From contig CP104013.1 of the NCBI GenBank assembly GCA_025839675.1, forward strand, positions 3,750,001 to 3,782,000: a stretch of DNA of 32,000 nucleotides, read 5' to 3'. Positions 7,568 through 32,000 of this stretch are shown here, one piece after another. The position numbers and the translations under genes were made by a program. Position 1 is the stretch's first letter, and each line of letters starts with the position of its first letter. This DNA comes from Candidatus Lokiarchaeum ossiferum (lineage in GTDB: Archaea > Asgardarchaeota > Lokiarchaeia > Sigyniarchaeales > Promethearchaeaceae). Under the pieces are notes generated by a model. It was not told the DNA's origin. It searched no databases and saw only the letters and a list, made by a program, of their open reading frames with translations.

Positions 7568-10500
7568 TTAATATTGTTCGACCCAATTTTCAAGTTCCAA
7601 ATACAATCTCTTTAAATTTTCAAGTTGTTCAGAAGTAGCTTCCCAATAGGAACGACGGTGTGCTTGGAGAAAATCTTTAATCATGGACATCATTGCAAAG
7701 TGATTATTTTCAACCAATGCAGATTTAATTTCTTCATTGTCAATATATTGTGAATAATACCGATTCCAAATTTGGCTATTCACACTATCAGTTGTAGCAG
7801 ATAAGCCAAGTACATTTTCAAGTCGTTCAGCAACTTTTTGCCCTCCATGGAAAGGATGTGCCAACATACCTTTTATCCATTTGGGATTTAATGATCTGGT
7901 AATGGAACCTTCTAGTACAGTAGATTGAAGAGTATCTAACCTGATTTCTTTTGAAGTAGTGTCGGCAATCAGAGTAGGTATTTTTTTTTTTTGCACTTCT
8001 TCAGCGGATCGCGAGAGACCTCCTGCAAATTCATAATAGTGATCAAGATCAGTAATATGGTATTCGGTTGAATCTCTTACTTGACTGATGACGTCCAACT
8101 TCTTTAGTGAATGAATGAAAGCTTTTTTTTGTTGGGACACAACTTGGTTTTTTTGGTAAGTAAAGCTCATCGAATTGATATAATCATCTACTAATTCGGT
8201 TTCTTCCGACCAAGTTCCCGCAGAAATCATAGTGGTCAAGTTTGTATTATATTTCCCTGGAGCAGGACCAAAAACACGGGCAATTGGACATCCTGTTCCA
8301 TCCAATTTTTGTTCTAAAAACAACTTTCTAACAAAATTAAAATCAGTTGGCTCATCTAAATGGGCTACCAATTCGAAAGCTTCATTAAGTAGATTGACAA
8401 GGTTTGGAAACGTATCACGAAAAATTCCACAAATTGTAACCAGAACATTGATCCTAGGATGCGTCATTTCATCCCTTGGAATAACTTCCAATTCGGTGGT
8501 CCATATTGAGGATTTTTTTACTGGTTTAACTCCAAGATAATGTAAAATTTGAGAAATTGTTTCCCCGCCAGTTTTCATTGTCTCAAATGCCCAAAGAACC
8601 ACACTAGTCGATTCTGGGTATGTGTGATTACTTTGATAATAATTGGATAAAATTTTACCCGTTATCTCCTTCCCTCGACGAAATGCCGTTGTACTTGGAA
8701 TCAATCGAGGATCAAATCCATAAGAATTCCTGCCTGTGGGATAAATTGAAGGATCTCGAATCGGGTCACCGCCTAAACCCGGTTCTATAAACTCGCCGCT
8801 CAATCCCCGCAAGAGATTCTTCATTTCACAAGATTGCCAATACTGATCTAAAAACTCACCCAACCATCGAATTAGGGGGAAATCAATGTCAGTATCAGAT
8901 ACTGAAAGATGATACTGATGATTTGAATAGAATTTTGTCAAGAGATCTTGAATTTTATTTAGCAGAATTGTATTTTGCACCTTTTCATCACTATCTATTG
9001 CTTCTTGCGGAAATATTTCGTGAGAAATACTCCCCGAATGTAATAGGATTTGTGCAATCATATCGCTTAACTCTTCAAAATTTAAATCTTGGCCCAAAAT
9101 ATGTAATCCCATAGGTATAACTTGTGTTTTATATTGATATATTTGCTCTTCAAGAGCACTTATAGATGAATATTCAATGGGAAGATGGGCAATTGATGTT
9201 TTGATTTCTTCTTCTAAGATCTGTAGTTTTTCTAAAGAAGCACTATCTCCTGAATTTTGCTGCATGGATGACAATTCATGGTATTCTGCAATAAATTTTT
9301 CAATCTGAGCAAATTCTTGATATAATCCAGAAGGTTTGAATGAAGGTCCGGCATGATTAATAACTACTGCGTTTGATCGACGTTTTGCGATTGCTGCTTC
9401 ACTGGTATTTGTGATGTGATAATAATATAAATGGGGAAGCGTGCCGATTAAATGAATTCCATAATCATCGCTGCATCCGAGATTTTGTTTCCCTGGCATG
9501 AATTCTAGAGTTCCATGAGTTCCAAAATGAATGAGTGCGTTGATTTTCAAGAGATGTTCAAGGTAATAGTAAAGAGCTAAATACTGATGGTGAGGTGGGA
9601 TTTTTTGATTATGATAATCTTCAGCATCACCTTTGACGAGTGTGCGTGCTGGTTGCAAGGCGATTATTATATTTCCAAAAATTAGAATTGGCAATTGTAT
9701 ATGATTCTCGATAATATTTATATTTCCAGGCGGTGCACCCCAATAATCTGTAATTTCTTGTTGAAATTGGAGAGGAAGTTGTTGAAAATATTTGAGATAG
9801 GTGCCAATTGGAAGTTTTACTCCAAAGAAATGCGATCTATTTAGGTACTTGGCCTTATTGATTGCTCCATTCTGAAAAAAGAGATCACTTAAATGGATAT
9901 TCTCCAAAAATGATGTTGTAGAATATCCTTCTTTAATAAGGGTTGGAACTAAGTTGGTTAATGATGCAGAGACATCTAGATATGCTGCATTCCCCAGTTT
10001 ATCTTCTCCAGGAGGATAATTATAGATCATCACCGCTACTTTTTTTTCTGCATTGGCTAATTTTCGTAGTTTTAGCCATTTTTTTACACGTGCACCTATC
10101 AATTCGATATTTGGAAGGAGTGGTATAATTTTTAGGATCTCATTATGAATCAAATCTGAATATCCATGTGAATACATGCATCCCACAGTCATCATTTCAA
10201 TTTTTCCATCCAATTCTGGCATGACTACTGATATTATTTGATTAATCGGAATAGTTCCTTGATCTGATTCAAGATAGTCATTCAAGAGAAGATCAAATTG
10301 AATAACAGGTGTTATATGGGGAACATTCATTTCTCGATACAAATCAAGCGTTATTTTCGAATCTCCACCAAGTGGTCCTCCATTTAACTGGAAATATTGG
10401 AAATTGAGAACAATATCAACAATACATTGGCGTTTTCTAAAAAAATAGTTACGATGTGCTTCCACGTTCTGTAAAACATCTGAAAATACCGGAATAATAT

Positions 10501-11356
10501 TATATTCCTCAAAGCGAATAAAAAATTCTCGAATAATTGGTAAAGATTGTTCAAAATATAAACCACCATAAAAAAACAAACCAATAGTTTGCTTATTAGC
10601 ATCTAAAGGATGTTTTTTAAGAAATTGAGGTAATGAATCGTAGTATTGGTTTTCAATAGGATGATAAATCCCTTGTTCGGGTATGAGAGCAGGAAGAGAA
10701 ACTTTGAGATTTGAATATCCCATATAAGATTTGAGAAGAAAGAGAATTAAGTTCTTATGATTTATGGGTATACCCGCTAATCCATTTATCCAATATTGTC
10801 GAAAATAAACCCAATTTCGAATATCTCGTAATGCCTTGAAGGGAAATAGTTTTGAAAACACTCCGAGAATTGCATCCATTTTTTTACCTTTTCTTACAGC
10901 ATCTGTTATATCGGGAAATTCATCAAAATTGAGTTCTTGGTCTTTTTTTGAAGAATTACTTGCCGGAATCATTTTCCCTCGGAAATGACCTAATTTCGTC
11001 AGTCGCATTAATCGCGGGCTTCCTGCAACTATCGTTATAACTTGCATATTTTCATAGCGTTCTGGATCAGAAGTTTCCATACGGGAAAGTTCTTCTTCAA
11101 GAATTTCTACCGCCAAACAATAACCCCTGATATCTAGTAAAAGAACATCTGAATTTGAAATAGCAGAACGAAATTTGTCTTGGGATATTTTTTCTTTATT
11201 GATGTCTTGAACCATATAAATATATAAAGAAATATTGTATCCGTATGTTGCGTTAATCTCAGCAAGGCCTTCGGTCAACCATTGTAATGAGACTGAAGCT
11301 GTTATCAAAGAAATTACGGGTTTAAAACTGGATTCACTTGTAGAAATCTGAGTCAT
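7568..11356 (-). CDS. cobN: Class I chelatase large subunit, CobN/ChlH/BchH family
   Basis: About 1260 aa. LIHFGTHGTLEFMPGKQ matches the conserved HxGxHGxxEWLPGK region of CobN/BchH, and size and colinearity fit throughout. The track start (11416) adds 20 aa read through an AT-rich TATA-like stretch. ATG at 11354..11356 (MTQISTS), preceded by AGGAAGGA, is preferred. Confidence 0.9.
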   Translation of the reverse strand: MTQISTSESSFKPVISLITASVSLQWLTEGLAEINATYGYNISLYIYMVQDINKEKISQDKFRSAISNSDVLLLDIRGYCLAVEILEEELSRMETSDPERYENMQVITIVAGSPRLMRLTKLGHFRGKMIPASNSSKKDQELNFDEFPDITDAVRKGKKMDAILGVFSKLFPFKALRDIRNWVYFRQYWINGLAGIPINHKNLILFLLKSYMGYSNLKVSLPALIPEQGIYHPIENQYYDSLPQFLKKHPLDANKQTIGLFFYGGLYFEQSLPIIREFFIRFEEYNIIPVFSDVLQNVEAHRNYFFRKRQCIVDIVLNFQYFQLNGGPLGGDSKITLDLYREMNVPHITPVIQFDLLLNDYLESDQGTIPINQIISVVMPELDGKIEMMTVGCMYSHGYSDLIHNEILKIIPLLPNIELIGARVKKWLKLRKLANAEKKVAVMIYNYPPGEDKLGNAAYLDVSASLTNLVPTLIKEGYSTTSFLENIHLSDLFFQNGAINKAKYLNRSHFFGVKLPIGTYLKYFQQLPLQFQQEITDYWGAPPGNINIIENHIQLPILIFGNIIIALQPARTLVKGDAEDYHNQKIPPHHQYLALYYYLEHLLKINALIHFGTHGTLEFMPGKQNLGCSDDYGIHLIGTLPHLYYYHITNTSEAAIAKRRSNAVVINHAGPSFKPSGLYQEFAQIEKFIAEYHELSSMQQNSGDSASLEKLQILEEEIKTSIAHLPIEYSSISALEEQIYQYKTQVIPMGLHILGQDLNFEELSDMIAQILLHSGSISHEIFPQEAIDSDEKVQNTILLNKIQDLLTKFYSNHQYHLSVSDTDIDFPLIRWLGEFLDQYWQSCEMKNLLRGLSGEFIEPGLGGDPIRDPSIYPTGRNSYGFDPRLIPSTTAFRRGKEITGKILSNYYQSNHTYPESTSVVLWAFETMKTGGETISQILHYLGVKPVKKSSIWTTELEVIPRDEMTHPRINVLVTICGIFRDTFPNLVNLLNEAFELVAHLDEPTDFNFVRKLFLEQKLDGTGCPIARVFGPAPGKYNTNLTTMISAGTWSEETELVDDYINSMSFTYQKNQVVSQQKKAFIHSLKKLDVISQVRDSTEYHITDLDHYYEFAGGLSRSAEEVQKKKIPTLIADTTSKEIRLDTLQSTVLEGSITRSLNPKWIKGMLAHPFHGGQKVAERLENVLGLSATTDSVNSQIWNRYYSQYIDNEEIKSALVENNHFAMMSMIKDFLQAHRRSYWEATSEQLENLKRLYLELENWVEQY

Positions 11357-11443
11357 GGATGGATTCCTTCCTATTAATATATATAAATTTAAAAAATGAA
11401 TATCTCTTGAGACCATAGATATTTTAAATTGGTGTAGTTATAT

Positions 11444-13633
11444 TCAAACTGGAACTTTAAGTAATCCTTGCTCTTTTAAGATAAATTCCAACTGAGAAAC
11501 TGTGAGATCAGATAAATGATAATATGCAGCGTTTGCCAATTCCGAAAAATCCTTGCAAAGTTGTAAGGGTACCTCCGAATGTTCTGTATCTATGACGAGG
11601 GTTTCAATTTCATCTGCTGCTAATTTTTCCGCGAGGTAAAGAACATCTGAAAGTGCATCGCGAAAGAACACATTCGCTCGAGCGTCTGTGATGAGCACCA
11701 GGAGAGGGATAAAACCTGTTTTCTTCCGTTTTTCTTCATCAATCACTTTGAAAGCTTCTATTATTCCCGCAGCCAAGGGTGTTGTTCCACCCGTAGGAAT
11801 TTCATGAAGTAACTTGTACGCTAAATCCACACTACGAGTCGGAGGGAGAATAATTTCAGCCTTTTCTTTTCGAAAAATAATAAGACAGACTTTATCGCGA
11901 TTAATGTAATTATTTTGCAGAATACGATAAATAGCACCTTTCACAGATGCCATTTGGTTTTCAACACCCATTGAAGCTGAAGCATCAACACAAAAGATGA
12001 TAAGGTGACTTGATTTCCCAATTCTTTTTTTTGTATGGATGTTTTCATCTTTAATTACTAATTTATTCCCATTTTTGATGAACTCACGATTTTCTGGGTT
12101 CAACGCAGCAGAGTTTAATGTTTCTGTCAACGAGATATCAGTGGAAGTGGGGAGATTAATTTGCTGTGAAGAAACACCTCCGACATACTTACCTTTACGG
12201 TCTGCGGTAGGATGAGTGATTTTGGAACCAGAAACTTTTAGCATCTTTCGAATTCGTTTTTGGTGAAGTATTTGAGGACTTTGAATATCATAATTTACGC
12301 CGAACACTTGATCAGGAGTAATAATTTGTGAAAAATCAGGAGAGCCATTTTCTGTCACGTTCTGTTCTGAATTTTGCAAGAGTTCTTCTTCTGATTCAGA
12401 TACTGCTTCAGACTCGGATTCAGCTTCAGCTTCAGGTTCAGATTCAGCTTCATCTTCAGGTTCAGATTCAGCTTCAGGTTCAGATTCAGCTTCAGGTTCA
12501 GATTCAGCTTCAGGTTCAGACTCATTTTTAATCTCTGGTTCTTCAGATTGTGCAGAATCTGGCTCTTCTTCTTCGAGTTGTGTAGAATCTCCTTTTTCTT
12601 GAAATTCTTTTATCAACCTATCAACAAAATCTTCATCAAAAGCATCATCTTCAAAAGGAAGACGGTGCAATCTATGCGTAATAGCCAACTTAGTGGCTAT
12701 TTTTATATCTTGAGGTAAAACTTTCAAACGATTTTTATACGCTGCTAATGTTTTTGCCGTTTCTGCGATGGTGATATCTGCTCGATGTCCATCAGTTTTG
12801 AAATGGATACAAATTTGTGCAATGAGAGCCAGTAAGTTATCAGAAATTTCTGTTAAATGAAGGATGCTCCGTCCATGAATAATCTGTTTCTGTAGTTTTT
12901 TTTGCAGAGTATCAAATTGAGCATGGAATTTCTCTGGATCTTCACGATATGCCGCAGAATATTTCATTATCTTCACACGTTGCTTTATATCTGCAATTCT
13001 TTCAATTGTTGTGCTCAATCCAAAACGATCCAACAACTGTGGGCGAAGATTTCCTTCTTCAGGATTCATTGTTCCAATTAAAATGAAGTGGCTTGGATGA
13101 TGAAGGCTGATTCCTTCTCTTTCAATTACATTGATACCCATTGCAGCACTATCAAGTAGAATATCAGCAACATTGTCTGCAAGCAAATTGATTTCATCAA
13201 TATAGAGAATGTTTCGATTCGCTGTAGCCAAAATTCCTGGTTCCAAAGATTTAATTCCTTGGGTGAGGGCTTTCTTAATATCAATGGTACCAACCACCCG
13301 ATCTTCGGTGGAATTAATGGGTAGATTGATTACTTGCATCTTTTTGTATACAATATCTTGATCGGTGAAACTATTGGTGCGAATCTTTTCTTGACAGACA
13401 TGACAAGATTCTTTGGGATCATCTGGATTACAGTTGAATTTACAATCTTTAATCGTTTTAATATCTGGTAATAGGTCAGATAACGCCCGAACTGCAGTAC
13501 TTTTTGCAGATCCCTTCATTCCTTTAATAAGAATTCCGCCAATCTTTGGGTTGATTGCATTCAAAATCAACCCCAATTTCATCATTTCTTGACCAATTAG
13601 GGCCGTGAAGGGATAAGGTTTGTAATGTGTCAT
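11444..13633 (-). CDS. Fused ChlI/BchI-type AAA+ ATPase and ChlD/BchD-type vWA subunit of a class I chelatase
   Basis: N-terminal motifs are [12 protein letters not shown], Walker [10 protein letters not shown], Walker [11 protein letters not shown] and [16 protein letters not shown]. The middle is an acidic (ESEPEA)n linker. The C-terminus is a vWA domain with MIDAS DASASM. The track start at 13642 is TTG. ATG at 13631..13633 (MTHYKPYPF) is preferred. Confidence 0.9.
12392..12523 (-). repeat. In-frame 18-nt tandem repeat encoding the acidic ESEPEA linker
   Basis: TTCAGATTCAGCTTCAGG occurs as three perfect consecutive copies (12461..12478, 12479..12496, 12497..12514). Degenerate copies lie on both sides. 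Confidence 0.9.
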
Positions 13634-13934
13634 GCACTTCAAATCTTTGTAATTCTCTACAATCGAAAATAAAATAATTTATAACAATAATCTCAATTAA
13701 TAATATTTTCGAAATGAGTATTACTGATAAAAATGACCCAAATCATAAAAAAATTTCCAATGAATTCAAGGCACTTTGGGCATCAATGAAAAAGCGGTGA
13801 AAATGATTATCCTAAGTGGAAAAATTTTCCCTTAGTTGAAAAAAAAACACATTTAAGTTTATATAGAAAAACTCATTTCGTTAAAGTAGGTTTAAAACAT
13901 ACACCTAGCAAAAAAAATACACTAAGTGAGAAGA

Positions 13935-21387: not shown

Positions 21388-22140
21388 TCATTTTTTTGGC
21401 TTGGTTATCAGGAAAATTAAAAGCAGTAACAATGAGAGAAATATCCAAAATCCTGCACATCCATAAAGGAAAATTAGGAGATATTCGTTGTAAAAACTGG
21501 TTCCAAGCAAAAAGAGACTTAATGCTCCCACAAATATGAGATAACCAAAAAAAATCATCATCAATTTCATGCCCAGAGAGATCGATTTTGAAAAAGATTT
21601 TATCTTTCCGCTAAGATTTCCTGAGGAAAACAAGGTTTTAATCCGTATATTATCTTTGTAAAATGCTTTTAACCAGACAAAATAAGCCATGATTCCAGCG
21701 CCTAAGAGACTGAAAAAGGCTTCCGTGAATCGGAAAGGATCTTCAGTTCCAATTGTTAGATTCAAAAGATATTTTATCGAAATAATCATAATATTCATCC
21801 AAAATAGATATAAAGTGATTGAAATGATTCCAATAACGAATTTAAATGCACTTTTCAAATTTCCTTCTTGGGCGGAGTCACCTAATTTCTGATTTACTCG
21901 ATGCATCAGTGAAAAATGTCTCCGAAGAAGTGGTAATTGCTTTAAAATCTTCATTTTATCATCCGGTATATCTACGGCTACTGCTAAAAATCCAAAGAGG
22001 AAGAAAATTGAGTAGGAAATGAATGCAGGAATTTCAAAAAATAAACCGATAATATATCCTATTCCCAAAAAAAAACCGTAAGTAATGATTGAAATAAGGA
22101 TTGAGTAAAATGGCTTTCGTTTTTCCTTTTTTTTTTCCAT
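21388..22140 (-). CDS. Polytopic membrane protein, unknown family
   Basis: 250 aa with about six hydrophobic helices and a Lys-rich N-terminus (MEKKKEKRK). It begins 9 nt after the upstream gene, which suggests an operon. Confidence 0.6.
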   Translation of the reverse strand: MEKKKEKRKPFYSILISIITYGFFLGIGYIIGLFFEIPAFISYSIFFLFGFLAVAVDIPDDKMKILKQLPLLRRHFSLMHRVNQKLGDSAQEGNLKSAFKFVIGIISITLYLFWMNIMIISIKYLLNLTIGTEDPFRFTEAFFSLLGAGIMAYFVWLKAFYKDNIRIKTLFSSGNLSGKIKSFSKSISLGMKLMMIFFGYLIFVGALSLFLLGTSFYNEYLLIFLYGCAGFWIFLSLLLLLIFLITKPKK

Positions 22141-22149
22141 TTTTCTTTC

Positions 22150-23478
22150 CTACTTTGACTTTTTCTTCTTATCTTTCTTTTTTTTGAACATTTTTGGCCA
22201 ATATAATTTCCCTATTAAGAATACTAATAGGGCTCCAAAACAACCTGCAAAGATTGATTTTACCGTGGTTAATAAAGATTCATTATTGGTAATAATAAAA
22301 TCTAGGATTTCAAATACAATACTCGCTCCAAGAATTAAATTGACCATGTTGAGTATTTTTTCTTGCCGTTTGTTCCCTTCTTCTTGTTTATCTAAAAAGA
22401 TTGAGTTGAGTTCTTCAGTATTACTCTCCAACTTGTCGGAAATCATTTGCCAATTCTTTTCAATATCATTAATTTCGACACAGTGTTTTAATAAAGTATG
22501 GTAATGTTGTCGATGGCTACGTGAAAGATCTGTAAAGAAAGGTGCAAGAGTTTTTTGAAGGATCATTTTCAACCGGTTTGTTTTATCTAAATCATCTTTA
22601 ATAAGGGCGGGTTTTTTGTCTGTGAATTCTTTCGTAGTGAGCTGTTGTGTATCTTGATCAATTTCAGCATTCACTAAGACCATCGCAAATCCTATTGTTC
22701 TGATCTGAATTACAGTTTTGATCACCGTATTATACATATAACCTGTAGAATCTGGAGTGTGTTCATCTTTAATGAAATATTTTGGATAATTTTCTTCATT
22801 CATAAAGACTAAGCCCGAATTTCGATTGATAAAATGCATCTCTGAAGTTCTATTACTTAAATTGAATTCCACTCTTCGGGCATACAATTCATCATGATAA
22901 TCGGGAAATTGGCCTGAATAGAGTTCCACCCATTTTCCAATTTCTTGTTTGTTTTGATCAATTGTTTTTTTAGTCCACTCTATTGTAGAGTCCGAGGTTG
23001 TGTTTGAAACAACATTGATTGCATAGGGGACTGTGTGTTCATCAAACAAGAATTTCTTTTCAAAAGCTTTAACTAAGTCATACCATATAAGGAACACAAT
23101 TTGTTGCATCAAATCAGGGCGTAATTCTTCTTTTCGACAATTCTCTACATTATTTTCCTTTAATTGAATCCGCAATAGCAAATAACCCAATTTCTTAAAA
23201 ATTAAATCTTCCCTCTGATATTGAAAATCCTCAATATAATTATTCCATTTTACGGTAATATCTAATGAATGTGCTATTTTTACAATATTTTCCCGAGTCT
23301 GAATCTCTGGAACAAACTTTTGATTAATCATTTCCAGTGATATACTTTGACATCTTTGATTTACATGCTTTTCAATCTTAAGGATCTCGTCATCCAATTC
23401 CTTCCCTTCTAAAGAAGTGAGGGTGGAAATTCCAAGCCATTCTTCATGGAAAATAAGCTTTAATGTTGAATCACTCAT
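22150..23478 (-). CDS. Hypothetical protein with CorA-like topology: large soluble N-domain, long helix, two C-terminal TM helices, poly-Lys tail
   Basis: The C-terminus reads NKRQEKILNMVNLILGASIVFEILDFI, a short loop, FAGCFGALLVFLIGKLYW, then KMFKKKKDKKKKSK. No GMN motif is present. The track start at 23484 is TTG. ATG at 23476..23478 (MSDSTLK) is preferred. Confidence 0.6.
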   Translation of the reverse strand: MSDSTLKLIFHEEWLGISTLTSLEGKELDDEILKIEKHVNQRCQSISLEMINQKFVPEIQTRENIVKIAHSLDITVKWNNYIEDFQYQREDLIFKKLGYLLLRIQLKENNVENCRKEELRPDLMQQIVFLIWYDLVKAFEKKFLFDEHTVPYAINVVSNTTSDSTIEWTKKTIDQNKQEIGKWVELYSGQFPDYHDELYARRVEFNLSNRTSEMHFINRNSGLVFMNEENYPKYFIKDEHTPDSTGYMYNTVIKTVIQIRTIGFAMVLVNAEIDQDTQQLTTKEFTDKKPALIKDDLDKTNRLKMILQKTLAPFFTDLSRSHRQHYHTLLKHCVEINDIEKNWQMISDKLESNTEELNSIFLDKQEEGNKRQEKILNMVNLILGASIVFEILDFIITNNESLLTTVKSIFAGCFGALLVFLIGKLYWPKMFKKKKDKKKKSK

Positions 23479-23521
23479 AGACAAAGTATTGGCAATTTGA
23501 GTAATAAGTTTTTAGGTGAAC

Positions 23522-27384: not shown

Positions 27385-27798
27385 ATGGATATAAATAATC
27401 AAAAAATACAAGCAAATGATTCTGTTGAAAAACATCAATCCTTAGCAGATGCTCCACTTGAATGGCATTGTATATCTAGCAAAAATAATCCTGCTTGTCA
27501 AAATAATTGTTTTACAAAGAATATTTTATCTTTATTTGGGAAAAAGCATACTTTACAAATCATTCGGCTTCTTCTGGATAATAAACAATTGAGATTCAAT
27601 GAAATTCTTAATCAAATTGGTGGAAGTCCAAAAACGATTACAGAACGATTGCGTGATTTAGAAAAAAGAAAACTGATTATCCGGGAAGTGTTTAATGAGA
27701 TCCCAATGCGGGTTCAATATTCTTTAACGGACGCAGGGAAAGACTTGGAAGATATTTTTGAACGTATTTCGCTCTGGGCTAAAAGATGGATGGATTAA
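27385..27798 (+). CDS. HxlR (MarR/DUF24)-family winged-helix regulator with a Cys/His-bearing N-terminal extension
   Basis: NCFTKNILSLFGKKHTLQIIRLL...RFNEILNQIGGSPKTITERLRDLEKRKLIIRE...VQYSLTDAGKDL is the HxlR signature. The N-terminal extension carries H28, C29, C38 and C42. SD-like GGAGTGA (27369..27375) lies 9 nt upstream of the ATG. Confidence 0.85.
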   Translation: MDINNQKIQANDSVEKHQSLADAPLEWHCISSKNNPACQNNCFTKNILSLFGKKHTLQIIRLLLDNKQLRFNEILNQIGGSPKTITERLRDLEKRKLIIREVFNEIPMRVQYSLTDAGKDLEDIFERISLWAKRWMD

Positions 27799-28057
27799 TA
27801 AAACGCTTAATAAATTTTTCAAATAAATCAAAATTTCATTCACTTTTAGAATTATACCATCTTTCATGTTTCAGTCAAACTGCTTTCTCCCTTAATCAAT
27901 TTTATATCAACTATGCATTATTGAAAATAAAACTATGTAGATTTAACCTATTTACTATGTATGCTTAACAATTAACAGACAACCTATTGTCTAAGTAGTT
28001 TAATTCATGAACTTCCCATTCTGTTTTAATAGCCAAAAATGTTAGTGACTTTTGAAT

Positions 28058-31000
28058 ATGAAAAGAATGAGTGACAATGCCCAGTATGTTGGAATTAACA
28101 TCGGGTCTGTATCAGTCAATGTTGTAATTTCTGATGGTTATGGTGAATTAGAATCGATTAAGGAACCGCATTTAGGAAATCCACAAAAAATATTGGCTGA
28201 AATTTTGGATAGTCGTGTATCAGCCGAAGAATCATTTTACGAAGTTTGTGGAACTTTTGGGTCTATTTCGGATAATACTGCAATTGAAAGTGGATTGGTT
28301 TCTTCCAATAAAAAATATGATATAGTGCTTTCTTTGGGGGGAGAGTCTTTTACACTTTATATTTTAGATGATCAAAGTCATATAGTGAATATTTTATCTC
28401 AAGACAAATGCGCTGCGGGGAGTGGAGAATTCTTCATCCAGCAAATAGAACGGTTGAATCTGTCTTTGGAAGATGCAATTGAATTAGCCGCTAAAGGAAA
28501 AAATATTCGTTTAGCTTCTCGATGTTCGGTGCACTGTAAATCCGATATAACACACAAGTTGAATAAAGGTGAAGCTCCATTAGAAAATGTTCTGAGTTCT
28601 TTGTTATCAAACATGGTGAACCAAGCCTTAGGGTTAATCAATCAATCAAAAGTAAAGGCTAAGAATATTTTATTGATTGGAGGTCTCTCATTAAATAGTA
28701 CATTTGTAACAAAACTTCGCGATCGCTTACCGGATGTAAATGTAGATATTACCAAGTTCAGTCCTGTTTATGAAGCCTATGGAACAGCACTTCTTGTTCA
28801 GGAAAACCCTCAAAATTTAACCCCCAATCTGAAAATTGCTCATTCTTTTAGCACTTTACCCAACCTTAAAGATTTTGGGCATCTTGTAAAACTAATGGAA
28901 ATGCCCGAATCTTCTCTATCGAATGATGAGAATAAAGAATATATTTTAGGGATTGATGTTGGATCTACTACTACTAAAGCAGTGGTTATGGAAGAAAAGA
29001 CATCTGCAATTCTTGGTTCTTTTTATGGAAGAACTAATGGAAATCCTATACAAGCCACCAAAGATTGTCTGCAGGAGATTATTGGTCAAATCGGAGATAA
29101 AAAAATCAAATTGGTTGGAGTCACCGGCTCCGGACGCCAAATGGTTGGGGCTTATCTGGGTACTTCAGGAATATTTAATGAAATTTCAGCTCATTCCATG
29201 GGTGCTGCCTACTTTGATCCTGAAGTCGATACAATTTTTGAAATCGGCGGTCAAGATGCAAAATATATGTTCTTGCAAAATGAGGTCCCAGTGGACTATG
29301 CGATGAATGCTTCGTGTTCAGCAGGTACAGGGTCATTCTTGGAGGAAAGTGCTAAATGCGATTTGAATGTGAAGGTTACAGAAATTTGCGATGTGGCTCT
29401 AAATGCTACACATCCCGTCAGATTCAAAGCCGACTGTGCTGCCTTTATAAATTCCGATATTCGAACTGCATTGCAAGAAGGATATGAGCGCGATGATATT
29501 ATTGGCGGATTAGTATACTCTATATCTAATAATTATCTGAATAAAGTCAAAGGTTCTCGTCCAATTGGAAATAAAATCTTTTTCCAAGGGGGAGTGGCCA
29601 AAAATAATGCCGTTGGTTATGCTTTTGCCCAAATAACGGGACGTGAAATAATTATTCCTCCTTTTCCAGAATTGATGGGTGCCTTTGGGATCGCTTTAAT
29701 GTCTGAGTTCAAATATAACAATCACTTAATCTCTCGAATGGAAGCTTCCACTACTTTATCTTCATTAATTGATACCGAAATGCGACACATTGGACAATTT
29801 GTGTGCAAATCTTGTGAAAATTTTTGTCAAATCGAACGATATCAAGTCGGAGAACGTAAATTTCCTTTTGGAGGGAAATGTACAAAGTGGGAACATAGTT
29901 GGAAGAAAGATGATAATGTTATTGAAAAAGAAGACTTGGTGGCATGGCGGAATGGGTTCATGTATAATCCTGAAGTTGCGTTAACTGAGATTTCCGGAAC
30001 ACAGAATATCGCAATAAAAACACAAATTGGTATTCCACGGGCTCTTTTGACCCATGCGCTTTATCCTCTTTTCTCTTCCTATTTTACCAATCTTGGTTTT
30101 GAAGTTGTCCTCTCAGATATAGAACCTGATGTAGAACTTTTGCCAAATGCTCCATTTTGTTATCCTATTCAAATCATGCATGGGGCAGTGGCAAATTTAG
30201 TGAAGCGCGGTATACAGTTGCTCTTTATTCCTTATATTCATAAGTTAAAACGAAGTCAAAAATGGGTAGATTCCACTTTTTGTCCGATTACCTTATCTGC
30301 TCCGTATTTAACTTTACCCATATTTGATCAATCCACATTTTTAACGCCTGAATTGGACTATTCCGATGGTTATTTGGAAAATGAAGCCCTCATCGAGCTT
30401 GCTCATGACCAATTCAACATCCCTATTGAACAATGTCACAAGGCGTATAAAAAAGCTGCATTGTATCAAAATTCCTTAGAAGCCCAAATTAAAGAAAAAG
30501 GGCGGGAGATATTGGATAGAATCACCAACTCGGATGAAATTGGGATTATCGTTGTTGGTCGCAGTTATAATGTCTATCCTGCCGAGACATCACAATCTAT
30601 TCCAAAGAAGTTGGTGAGTATGGGAGTAAACGTGCTTCCTTTTGATTTTCTTGAACCAGTTTCCAAAACCGATATTTCATGGTATTTCGCGAATTACGTG
30701 AAAGAAGCAGTCAATCTGGTACAACAGCACGATAATTTATTTTTACTCTACATTAATAATTATAGCTGCACGGTAGATGCATTCATTCAGAATCATGTAC
30801 GTAGTGAAATGGCTTCAAAACCGTATCTTTTATTGGAATTGGATGCTCATGTTGCTGATGCGGGAACCCAAACTCGATTGGAAGCCTTTTTAGAGATTAT
30901 AAAAAACTATCAACTCTCACGAGCGCCAAAACCAATTAATGATTATCAATTATCCAAGGTATTTGAAGAAAATGGAAAACCAGTTGTAATCACATCCGAT

Positions 31001-32000
31001 GGGGAACGAATGGACTTCACCGACGAGCGCATAAAAGTCTATATGCCTTGTTTTTCAGAAATTCATACAGCCTTAATTGAGAAATTTTTGGTAAATGCCG
31101 GAATCAATATGGGACATATTGGTGATATCCAACTAGAATATCCTATTGAAGGATTAAAACATTGTTCTGGAAAAGAATGTGTTCCTTTGCCAATCGTTTT
31201 GGGACAAATTTTACATATTGTAAAAAATCGAAAACCCGGTGAAATTTCTGGCTATATGATTTTAACAGGAGGAGAACCTTGTGTCGTATGTCAATACAAA
31301 CAATTTATGACCGAATTTTTGATTAAAAATAAAATTAAAGATGTCTTCTTCTTTGGAATTAACAAGGAATACCATTACATTGGGTTCATGAATAAGGATT
31401 TCATCCAATATGCTCCAAAAATGATGGCTCTTGGGGATCTTATACATGAGGTTTCCAGTACTCTCCAAGTTGTAGGAGAAGATGGAGCGATGGATTTGTT
31501 CCAAAAATATTTAGATGAATTTCTAGCTGATTTTACAGAAATGCAAAAATCAAATCGGGAAATTGATAAATTTGTTCAAAAGATTAAAACCATTCCCACA
31601 AAAATGTCTCCCCAAGATTGTCCTAAAGTGTTACTCGATGGGGACTTCTTTGTTCGATACAGTCCTTTCTTTTTGAAGGAAATGAAAGCTTTGTATGCCC
31701 AACACGGAATTATTGTTAAATCGAATGATCTCTTTGAAATTTTCGTAGCGGCCATTCCATTTGGTAGCGTTATTGCGGGACCCAAATATCGAGATAGATA
31801 TGTAAAGAAAATGCGTGATAACGTCCAAGGAAACCGTAATCTTTGGGATCCTCTAACTCCTGGATTTTATGCGAGTCAATTACTCTATAAGTTAATGACT
31901 AGCATTGAAAAAAGACTACGGAAGAAATTTGAACGTACCGGACTCATTGTGTCAAAACCATCTAATGTATTACATGCTTTAAATAAATGTGATAATGGAT
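28058..32000 (+). CDS. Giant fusion protein (at least 1314 aa, 3' end beyond the window): two BcrAD/BadFG (HgdC-like) ATPase modules, a Cys4 linker and HgdB/DUF2229-like dehydratase-component domains
   Basis: Absent from the ORF track because it has no stop before the window end. My own translation from ATG 28058 (in-frame TGA at 28046) is open through 31999.
Module 1 motifs: VGINIGSVSV, QDKCAAGSGEFF, ASRCSVHCKSD.
Module 2 motifs: LGIDVGSTTTKAVV (from nt 28946), EIGGQDAKY, NASCSAGTGSFLEE, KADCAAFINSD, FFQGGVAKNNAV.
Linker: CKSCENFCQ-x16-C (nt 29804..29881).
Dehydratase-like region: IGIPRALLTHALYPLFSSYF, VVGRSYNVY, LLLELDAHVADAGTQTRLEAF, PKVLLDGDFFVRYSPF. Confidence 0.9.
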   Translation, partial: MKRMSDNAQYVGINIGSVSVNVVISDGYGELESIKEPHLGNPQKILAEILDSRVSAEESFYEVCGTFGSISDNTAIESGLVSSNKKYDIVLSLGGESFTLYILDDQSHIVNILSQDKCAAGSGEFFIQQIERLNLSLEDAIELAAKGKNIRLASRCSVHCKSDITHKLNKGEAPLENVLSSLLSNMVNQALGLINQSKVKAKNILLIGGLSLNSTFVTKLRDRLPDVNVDITKFSPVYEAYGTALLVQENPQNLTPNLKIAHSFSTLPNLKDFGHLVKLMEMPESSLSNDENKEYILGIDVGSTTTKAVVMEEKTSAILGSFYGRTNGNPIQATKDCLQEIIGQIGDKKIKLVGVTGSGRQMVGAYLGTSGIFNEISAHSMGAAYFDPEVDTIFEIGGQDAKYMFLQNEVPVDYAMNASCSAGTGSFLEESAKCDLNVKVTEICDVALNATHPVRFKADCAAFINSDIRTALQEGYERDDIIGGLVYSISNNYLNKVKGSRPIGNKIFFQGGVAKNNAVGYAFAQITGREIIIPPFPELMGAFGIALMSEFKYNNHLISRMEASTTLSSLIDTEMRHIGQFVCKSCENFCQIERYQVGERKFPFGGKCTKWEHSWKKDDNVIEKEDLVAWRNGFMYNPEVALTEISGTQNIAIKTQIGIPRALLTHALYPLFSSYFTNLGFEVVLSDIEPDVELLPNAPFCYPIQIMHGAVANLVKRGIQLLFIPYIHKLKRSQKWVDSTFCPITLSAPYLTLPIFDQSTFLTPELDYSDGYLENEALIELAHDQFNIPIEQCHKAYKKAALYQNSLEAQIKEKGREILDRITNSDEIGIIVVGRSYNVYPAETSQSIPKKLVSMGVNVLPFDFLEPVSKTDISWYFANYVKEAVNLVQQHDNLFLLYINNYSCTVDAFIQNHVRSEMASKPYLLLELDAHVADAGTQTRLEAFLEIIKNYQLSRAPKPINDYQLSKVFEENGKPVVITSDGERMDFTDERIKVYMPCFSEIHTALIEKFLVNAGINMGHIGDIQLEYPIEGLKHCSGKECVPLPIVLGQILHIVKNRKPGEISGYMILTGGEPCVVCQYKQFMTEFLIKNKIKDVFFFGINKEYHYIGFMNKDFIQYAPKMMALGDLIHEVSSTLQVVGEDGAMDLFQKYLDEFLADFTEMQKSNREIDKFVQKIKTIPTKMSPQDCPKVLLDGDFFVRYSPFFLKEMKALYAQHGIIVKSNDLFEIFVAAIPFGSVIAGPKYRDRYVKKMRDNVQGNRNLWDPLTPGFYASQLLYKLMTSIEKRLRKKFERTGLIVSKPSNVLHALNKCDNG

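Follow-up and report, generated by a model that had tools for sequence, protein, structure and literature searches.

The region analysed is a stretch of 32,000 nucleotides (the window) from the Lokiarchaeial Asgard archaeon Candidatus Lokiarchaeum ossiferum (GenBank assembly GCA_025839675.1, contig CP104013.1, positions 3,750,001 to 3,782,000 of the forward strand), and its end is occupied by one long gene, which encodes two activator-type ATPase modules, a cysteine-rich linker and two reductase-like units in a single polypeptide. The frame that begins with the ATG at position 28058 runs for 1314 codons without a stop up to the window's last base, 32000, and since the nearest upstream in-frame stop ends at 28048, this ATG is the first of the frame. 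The gene is intact and is cut by the window edge, full-length relatives having 1380-1470 residues and orthologues about 1420; the window thus holds the 5' 92% of a gene of about 1420 codons. The tail of about 107 residues beyond the edge, which includes one invariant cysteine, the sixth of the reductase half (C1351), was read from P0001, a protein of 1422 residues from a metagenomic contig that aligns end to end with the window protein at 92% identity with a single gap. Over the 1314 codons compared with the orthologue of the locus L004, dN/dS (the ratio of non-synonymous to synonymous substitution rates) is 0.054 at a dS of 0.75, a ratio of about 0.05 that indicates a working gene under strong purifying selection, and the base composition of the gene is that of the rest of the window, as expected of a native gene. 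Exactly seven open reading frames (ORFs) of at least 60 residues fall into the interval 28399-31828, each in another frame or on the opposite strand; because they overlap a gene with an end-to-end 92% orthologue and strong purifying selection, they are shadows of it. An initial annotation of this DNA, made from the letters alone, had described both the open frame and its seven shadows, and both descriptions hold.

Searches against Pfam and NCBIfam matched PF01869 twice (5.9e-56), PF09989 (3e-47) and TIGR00241 (3.5e-69) in the window protein, so that the profile-HMM searches suggested at the outset for the BcrAD_BadFG and DUF2229 families returned both. AlphaFold models were built on the family alignment for the ATPase and the reductase halves separately, the latter with the complete C-terminus, and reached a predicted local distance difference test score (pLDDT) of 86.9 with a predicted template modelling score (pTM) of 0.80, and a pLDDT of 86.5 with a pTM of 0.85, respectively. 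Profiles, models and fold comparisons all bear out the order first proposed, namely two HgdC/BcrAD-type ATPases (Act1 and Act2), a four-cysteine (Cys4) linker and two units resembling dehydratase components (Red1 and Red2). The features of the locus are collected in Table 1.

Table 1. Features of the fused gene and of the region upstream of it in the window, with the two gene pairs of the split Asgard system located on other contigs.
Feature	Residues	Coordinates	Strand	Description	Conserved cysteines
HxlR-family winged-helix regulator		27385..27798	+	PF01638, 9.4e-20; directly upstream	
Conserved upstream non-coding region		27890..28057	+	Putative promoter/operator; conservation with L004	
Fused ATPase-ATPase-Cys4-Red1-Red2 enzyme gene, 5' part		28058..32000	+	Open frame; colinear with P0001 and with P0006 of MK-D1	
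Act1	1-285	28058..28912	+	HgdC-type ASKHA module with degenerate nucleotide motifs NIGSVS and SLGGESF; clade signature SRCSVHCKSDITH	C118 (28409-28411), C156 (28523-28525), clade-specific C160
Act2	290-555	28925..29722	+	Canonical activator ATPase: DVGSTT, EIGGQDAK, QGGVAKN	C420 (29315-29317), C460 (29435-29437); C337 nearly invariant
Cys4 linker	575-612	29780..29893	+	Putative extra metal site	C583-x2-C586-x3-C590-x17-C608, all invariant in 107 sequences
Red1	~650-955	30005..30922	+	HgdB/BcrB-like unit, DUF2229 plus HGD-D C-terminal fragment	C701-x40-C742-x161-C904, invariant
Red2	~985-1314 of ~1420	31010..32000	+	Second reductase-like unit	C1041-x33-C1075-x274-C1351, invariant; C1351 (P0001 numbering) beyond the window
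Split pair, locus L018		7001-9919 + 9950-11344			
Split pair, locus L019		7001-9958 + 9961-11370			

The ATPase half as a whole superposes on HadI, HgdC, MbdQ/P and DCCP-R, the reductase of the double-cubane cluster protein (DCCP), with template modelling (TM) scores of 0.78-0.87. Act2 is matched by PF01869 over positions 1-270 of 271 and by TIGR00241 over 1-248 of 248; it is similar to HadI (6.6e-36) and HgdC (4.8e-33) with the cluster cysteines aligned, and Foldseek superposes it on 4eht, 1hux and 9gai_D at TM 0.85-0.87. In Act1, PF01869 matches the C-terminal part only (residues 88-244, 4.1e-14), the module can be aligned to both HadI and HgdC, and the model, with a pLDDT above 90, shows an ASKHA-like order of strands and helices. 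Both modules keep the two cysteine positions to which the initial annotation had pointed, in DKCAAGSG (residue 116) and SRCSVHC (154) of Act1 and in NASCSAGTG (417) and KADCAAF (457) of Act2. C118 and C420 align on Cys127 of HgdC, and C156 and C460 on its Cys166, the two positions that hold the bridging [4Fe-4S] cluster in activators of solved structure. When conservation was scored in an alignment of 107 full-length sequences, all four were invariant.

The phosphate-1 motif of Act1 had also been read as degenerate, and it is so: NIGSVS stands where Act2 has DVGSTT. On comparison with relatives, this degeneracy was found to be conserved in every Asgard member, and it is hence not peculiar to the window sequence. 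Across the clade the phosphate-1 Asp and Thr and the phosphate-2 acidic and Lys residues of Act1 are lost. The phosphate-1 motif reads NIGALT in the bacterial sister clade and EIGAVS in the group of Thermodesulfobacteriota and Scalindua, and a large Desulfobacterales clade has a different degeneracy, CLGAST; in Act1 of the PlsA-type proteins from Listeria, Collinsella and Acetoanaerobium, by contrast, the canonical DxGSTT and ELGGEDAK are retained. Act1 is thus a conserved pseudo-ATPase. As its degeneracy is conserved across clades while Act2 is canonical, the intramolecular pseudo-dimer with asymmetric ATP use that had been proposed from the window alone is well supported by sequence; the cluster cysteines are present in both modules, and the two-module model is a confident one.

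In all, 15 of the cysteines encoded in the window show little or no variation among the 107 sequences, in addition to the invariant one beyond its edge. Those of the linker, whose spacing had been noted correctly, recur in the PlsA proteins of Listeria, Collinsella and Acetoanaerobium, and the Desulfobacterales clade has C-x6-C-x3-C at this place. The linker, modelled as a small three-stranded beta unit (pLDDT ~70-80), may hold either zinc or a further cluster, the latter serving to pass on or store electrons.

Recognition of the reductase half at the sequence level is far more limited. DUF2229 (PF09989) is placed at residues 656-864, and PF06050 (HGD-D) is matched at residues 879-948 with profile positions 270-342 of 342 only, at 17.8 bits against a threshold of 28.4; the two together form one unit, Red1. 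Red2, about 465 residues long and the most divergent part of the protein, has no Pfam match when the full Red2 of P0001 is searched. A family-profile search of the PDB with the reductase half matched no catalytic chain of the 2-hydroxyacyl-CoA dehydratases (HAD) or benzoyl-CoA reductases (BCR). In fold comparison by Foldseek, on the other hand, the matches with E<0.01 are BzdNO, MbdON, DCCP and HadBC only, at TM 0.40-0.47. A double-cubane [8Fe-9S] cluster is held by six ligating cysteines in one unit of about 400 residues, as by Cys36/73/100/263/293/327 of BzdN, and DCCP has a seven-cysteine motif, CX19CX18-19CX29CX166-170CX32-34CX32C; three cysteines hold a [4Fe-4S] cluster with an open iron ([4Fe-4S]-OH2) in BzdO (Cys95/128/380) and likewise in HadB and HadC. 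Because each reductase unit has three invariant cysteines and not six, the sites of Red1 and Red2 are predicted to be of the HAD/BzdO [4Fe-4S] type and not double-cubane, and the spacing C-x33-C-x274-C of Red2 resembles that of the three BzdO ligands. The comparison with double-cubane and YjiL/YjiM-type proteins that was made at first is not borne out, since neither unit has six or seven such cysteines.

The closest relatives of the protein are all from Asgard archaea, in agreement with the early impression of an archaeal genome. The contig of P0001 (51.7 kb) is syntenic with the window across the upstream genes, sharing those for an M24 peptidase, DinB, a histidine phosphatase, two unannotated ORFs, an RNase-H-like protein, an MFS transporter and the HxlR protein. 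Identity is 61-67% to proteins from metagenome-assembled genomes (MAGs) of Promethearchaeota and 62% to the orthologue P0006 (1419 residues) in the closed genome of Promethearchaeum syntrophicum MK-D1, and it is 50-59% to Heimdall-, Thor-, Gerd- and Kariarchaeal proteins, including one from the closed chromosome of Heimdallarchaeum aukensis. The next relatives, from bacterial MAGs of Nitrospira, Binatia, Acidobacteriota and Roseiflexaceae, are about 41-42% identical. The ORF is a native, functional gene of a Lokiarchaeial Asgard archaeon, and the fused gene represents a conserved and selected Asgard-wide lineage, not sporadic contamination or a recent transfer.

Trees were built by neighbour-joining with bootstrap, a simple distance method whose support values are to be read as indicative. 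The fused Asgard proteins, spanning Loki-, Heimdall-, Thor-, Gerd- and Kariarchaeal sequences, are monophyletic (bootstrap 71-83%) and sister to a Nitrospira-type clade (100%); this pair joins a clade of Thermodesulfobacteriota, Ca. Scalindua and Abyssobacteria (84-93%), and all of these carry the Act1 signature SRCSVHCK. The Desulfobacterales clade lies further off, and of all the groups the PlsA-type references stand furthest away. The family is large: the reductase half alone has 2031 matches at E<=1e-3 and 298 at E<=1e-30, counted as representatives of 50%-identity clusters. Nitrospira is the main source of the closest bacterial relatives (P0085-P0120 and the Nitrospira sp. CG24B contig L017), even though its members oxidise nitrite aerobically and the enzyme class is oxygen-sensitive; on L017 an MlaC phospholipid-transport gene lies near the family member. 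A full-length member of 1491 residues (P0220) was also seen on an 11.8 Mb contig of Anaeramoeba flamelloides, an anaerobic eukaryote, and in the tree it clusters with Vicinamibacteria-type bacterial sequences, not with those of Asgard archaea.

Asgard genomes also contain a second system of this kind, which is split. A gene for a protein of about 960-1000 residues, comprising Act1, Act2, linker and Red1, is followed by an adjoining gene for a Red2 homologue of 464-469 residues, and such pairs were seen in Promethearchaeota, Lokiarchaeota, Thorarchaeota and Odinarchaeota genomes. The product of the second gene has no Pfam match and keeps all three Red2 cysteines; Red2 of the fused protein matches the 464-residue product at an E-value of 8e-22. 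The split pair is 55% identical to the fused proteins of Thermodesulfobacteriota and Ca. Scalindua but 32% to the fused Asgard type of the window, and for this reason it is considered, on sequence comparison, an independent lineage; in the tree it is never the sister of the fused Asgard type. A B12-binding radical-SAM gene was observed upstream of the split system at L018 (5050-6297).

Comparison with characterised systems places the protein within the BCR/HAD superfamily, the activator by its two PF01869 matches, TIGR00241, the aligned HgdC cysteines and the close fold match of Act2, and the catalytic part by fold matches confined to this superfamily and by three invariant cysteines per unit. 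With HgdC/HgdAB and HadI/HadBC it shares homologous ATPase modules (E-values of 1e-33 to 1e-36, TM 0.85-0.87) with the same two cluster cysteines, and with HadBC also the catalytic fold and the pattern of three cysteines per unit. The Asgard activator, however, is fused, duplicated, half-degenerate and followed by the extra Cys4 linker, and the catalytic half lacks sequence-level similarity to HadBC and HgdAB as well as a conserved CoA-transferase partner; the sub-threshold fragment of PF06050 and the lack of any HAD chain in the PDB profile search set it apart from the 2-hydroxyacyl-CoA dehydratases. The class I benzoyl-CoA reductases BzdNOPQ and MbdONPQ give the best fold matches to the reductase half (8s02 and 9gai_B), at TM 0.40-0.45 only, and have a heterodimeric ATPase pair like Act1-Act2, but they consist of four separate subunits. 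The six-cysteine [8Fe-9S] cluster of BzdN is absent from the Asgard protein, and it is the [4Fe-4S]-OH2 site of BzdO that Red2 approaches.

The full architecture is that of PlsA and Ger, with two PF01869 domains followed by PF09989. PlsA or PlsA-PlsR (CPE1194-1195 in C. perfringens, EF1327 in E. faecalis) has the identical order Act1-Act2-Cys linker-Red1-Red2; the PlsA orthologues of Listeria, Collinsella and Acetoanaerobium have all the ATPase, linker and reductase cysteines in common with the Asgard protein, and both groups occur in fused and split gene forms. With Listeria PlsA the alignment is colinear and covers residues 10-1204 at an E-value of 1e-99. The kinship with PlsA and Ger expected by the initial annotation is thus upheld for the full-length arrangement, but the protein stands outside the PlsA clade proper: it is 26% identical to Listeria PlsA, has NIGSVS and SLGGESF in Act1 where PlsA has the canonical DVGSTT and ELGGEDAK, and reads RCSVHCK in place of RCGVFAK. 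Ger, a 'modified PlsA' (Tmari_0479/AGL49404.1 of T. maritima, SHJ90043.1 of D. alkenivorans), is likewise a single polypeptide of about 150 kDa with two PF01869 and PF09989, and it is anaerobic and self-sufficient, as is proposed for the Asgard protein. PF09989 with two PF01869 (BBD) is the sole part conserved in all alkyl-ether producers. The C-terminal Pfam pattern of Ger is BBDHDDH or BBDHDHDH, whereas the Asgard protein has BBD, one H fragment and the Pfam-silent Red2. Among the named bacteria that neighbour the Asgard clade are taxa from which Ger homologues have been reported (Nitrospirota, Thermodesulfobacteriota and anammox Planctomycetota), an overlap that is suggestive only.

Considering these relationships, the best explanation, to which as a whole, with the lipid substrate discussed below included, we assign a probability of about 0.5, is that this member of the BCR/HAD ('archerase') superfamily, with its PlsA/Ger architecture, works as a radical reductase that is ATP-dependent, contains iron-sulphur (Fe-S) clusters and activates itself within a single polypeptide. 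The enzyme class and the logic of electron transfer we regard as very probable. Act1 and Act2 would form an intramolecular pseudo-heterodimer around one [4Fe-4S] cluster, and Act2 alone would bind and hydrolyse ATP, thereby driving an electron of low potential into the reductase half, perhaps through a cluster in the linker; two three-cysteine [4Fe-4S] clusters of the HadBC/BzdO type would accept it there. The open iron of one of these may bind the substrate carbonyl and yield a ketyl radical, with reduction and dehydration to follow. No conserved partner gene was found at 11 Asgard loci, the window included, or at one Nitrospira locus, which is consistent with a self-contained enzyme.

As regards the substrate, we agree with the initial annotation that it cannot be read from the sequence. 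By homology the likeliest class is a lipid ester, in that an acyl-glycerolipid ester carbonyl would be converted to an alk(en)yl ether as by Ger and PlsA, an assignment that we hold tentatively and somewhat short of an even chance. The only activities shown experimentally for the full architecture are conversions of sn-1 esters to vinyl or alkyl ethers, for which a single gene is enough in E. coli, and the conservation of every Fe-S ligand and of the domain order supports a Ger/PlsA-like role. The lipid-enzyme reading given at first meets counter-evidence, however, in MK-D1, a carrier of the orthologue for which the literature reports isoprenoid lipids only.

Several points weigh against this reading. 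MK-D1 is reported to have no genes for ester-lipid synthesis (although ester-lipid genes have been reported for some Lokiarchaea), and its orthologue lies among genes of acyl-CoA metabolism (L005 6161-16089; chromosome 3831060-3840988), with a thiolase, a Pfam-silent ORF of 199 residues, an acyl-CoA dehydrogenase and a MaoC hydratase upstream on the same strand and CoA-transferase A/B downstream. The window belongs to an archaeon whose cultured relative is without ester lipids, a difference from Ger, and identity to PlsA-type proteins is low, as given above. A close paralogue in D. alkenivorans, Ger2, yielded no ether lipids, and according to a later statement by the group that described Ger, sequence does not suffice to assign a protein to Ger or to PlsA. 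In favour of the lipid reading, Ger homologues were already reported in Lokiarchaeota, with Ca. Prometheoarchaeum syntrophicum named, and in Heimdallarchaeota by Sahonero-Canavesi et al. 2022, who also considered what this could mean for eukaryogenesis; the criterion by which they accepted homologues was, however, a broad one (DIAMOND E<=1e-50 and at least 30% coverage against T. maritima Ger). Asgard Ger-like homologues have thus been in print since 2022, and the window gene adds another of a known type, so that the earlier remark that such an enzyme would be notable in an archaeon had been anticipated. No later paper linking Asgard archaea with Ger was found in the literature searched, and in a review of 2026 the lipid composition of Asgard archaea is still counted among the open questions.

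The gene set around the MK-D1 orthologue, whose layout is typical of acyl-CoA fermentation and recalls the clostridial had operons, bears directly on another explanation, that of a radical enzyme of acyl-CoA-level fermentation. On this view the fused, self-activating protein would resemble the 2-hydroxyacyl-CoA dehydratases or related ketyl-radical enzymes, and its substrates would be CoA thioesters from amino-acid or fatty-acid catabolism rather than membrane lipids. MK-D1 ferments amino acids, the classical members of the superfamily act on CoA esters, and the relatives carry the database label 'acyl-CoA dehydratase activase'. We nevertheless consider this explanation unlikely, as the acyl-CoA neighbourhood is confined to this one of the 11 Asgard loci and is found neither in the window nor at nine others, the reductase half finds no solved HAD or BCR subunit even by profile and resembles them in fold at TM 0.40-0.47 only, PF06050 is represented by a 70-residue fragment below threshold, and the colinearity with PlsA extends over the full length. 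No member of the fused architecture, moreover, is known to use a CoA ester.

Slightly less probable again is that an enzyme of the PlsA/Ger architecture was recruited in Asgard archaea to some other carbonyl or ester, such as lipids scavenged from bacterial partners, esters including waxes, or a metabolite peculiar to archaea; homology would then reveal the chemistry and not the role in the cell. The clade of fused Asgard proteins is old, distinct and monophyletic, at 41% identity to the nearest bacteria, its Red2 is the part that diverges most and escapes Pfam, and the family to which it belongs is mostly uncharacterised at its 2031 representatives. The missing ester-lipid pathway of MK-D1 and the inactivity of Ger2 on E. 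coli lipids would also fit, and the split paralogue suggests functional diversification. Positive evidence for any particular alternative substrate is lacking, however, the conservation of all Fe-S ligands and of the architecture argues for conserved chemistry, and ester-lipid genes are reported in some Lokiarchaea. Very improbable and disfavoured, lastly, is a DCCP-like ATP-dependent reductase of small molecules with a double-cubane [8Fe-9S] cluster, as represented by YjiL/YjiM or DCCP-R/DCCP. These proteins are part of the same superfamily, the fold and sequence matches include DCCP (6eno, 7yzm_A) and DCCP-R (7yyl_E/F), and fusions of an ATP-driven reductase module with the catalytic unit exist in that family, but the defining six- or seven-cysteine motif of DCCP and E. 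coli YjiM is absent, Red1 and Red2 having three cysteines each at other spacing, and DCCP is not a better fold match than the BCR/HAD subunits.

A bolder proposal, which we regard as doubtful, combines elements of the above. The fused Asgard proteins may constitute an Asgard-wide, ATP-driven ketyl-radical reductase of ancient origin and vertical descent that acts not on an ester lipid of the host's own, since MK-D1 makes none, but either on acyl lipids from syntrophic bacterial partners, which it would turn into ether lipids, or on a new carbonyl of Asgard fermentation; the split paralogue, of separate bacterial ancestry, would then serve a second function.

The immediate surroundings of the gene offer some further observations. 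The HxlR gene directly upstream is kept in the 92% relative L004 and not at other Asgard loci, and its product is a possible local regulator. Over about 170 nucleotides upstream of the start, conservation with L004 is well above that of the distal intergenic region and of the synonymous sites of the gene, and includes an identical run of about 60 nucleotides. A perfect palindrome, AGACAA-CCTA-TTGTCT, lies at 27977-27992; the window has this single copy, and the only other one found is in L004. As the region has no Rfam match of meaningful score and an RNA-folding z-score of 0.10, a putative protein operator or promoter is the likelier nature of this element. Genes of a lipid or membrane flavour were seen sporadically near family members at L003, L008 and L018, none of them conserved: a polytopic membrane protein with an acyltransferase-3-like N-terminus directly downstream at L003 (14177-15661), an Acyl_transf_3 gene upstream at L008 (6317-7774), and the gene at L018 mentioned above. 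Elsewhere on the reverse strand of the window, a CobN-type chelatase gene (1282 residues) is followed by a ChlI/ChlD-like AAA+/VWA gene (732 residues) that has an acidic insert of low complexity, the two genes making up a complete chelatase set (7568-13642), and two adjoining ORFs of 250 and 444 residues have no Pfam match (21388-23484) and are syntenic in L004 (4314-6391).

No known organisms are more closely related to the host lineage of eukaryotes than the Asgard archaea, and the switch from archaeal isoprenoid-ether to bacterial-type membranes has yet to be explained. Enzymes that turn ester into ether bonds once a lipid has been assembled are thus worth testing in these archaea, as the discoverers of Ger have already said. 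To this the present analysis adds an Asgard-wide selected lineage, a half-dead ATPase pair, sites of the HAD/BzdO type, a second, split system and a cultured carrier without a known substrate. These results warn against naming such genes Ger or PlsA by homology alone, and at the same time they make the lipid hypothesis sharply testable. Conversion of partner lipids, if true, would mean that an enzyme directly links the two sides of the lipid divide, and this in the archaea nearest to eukaryotes.

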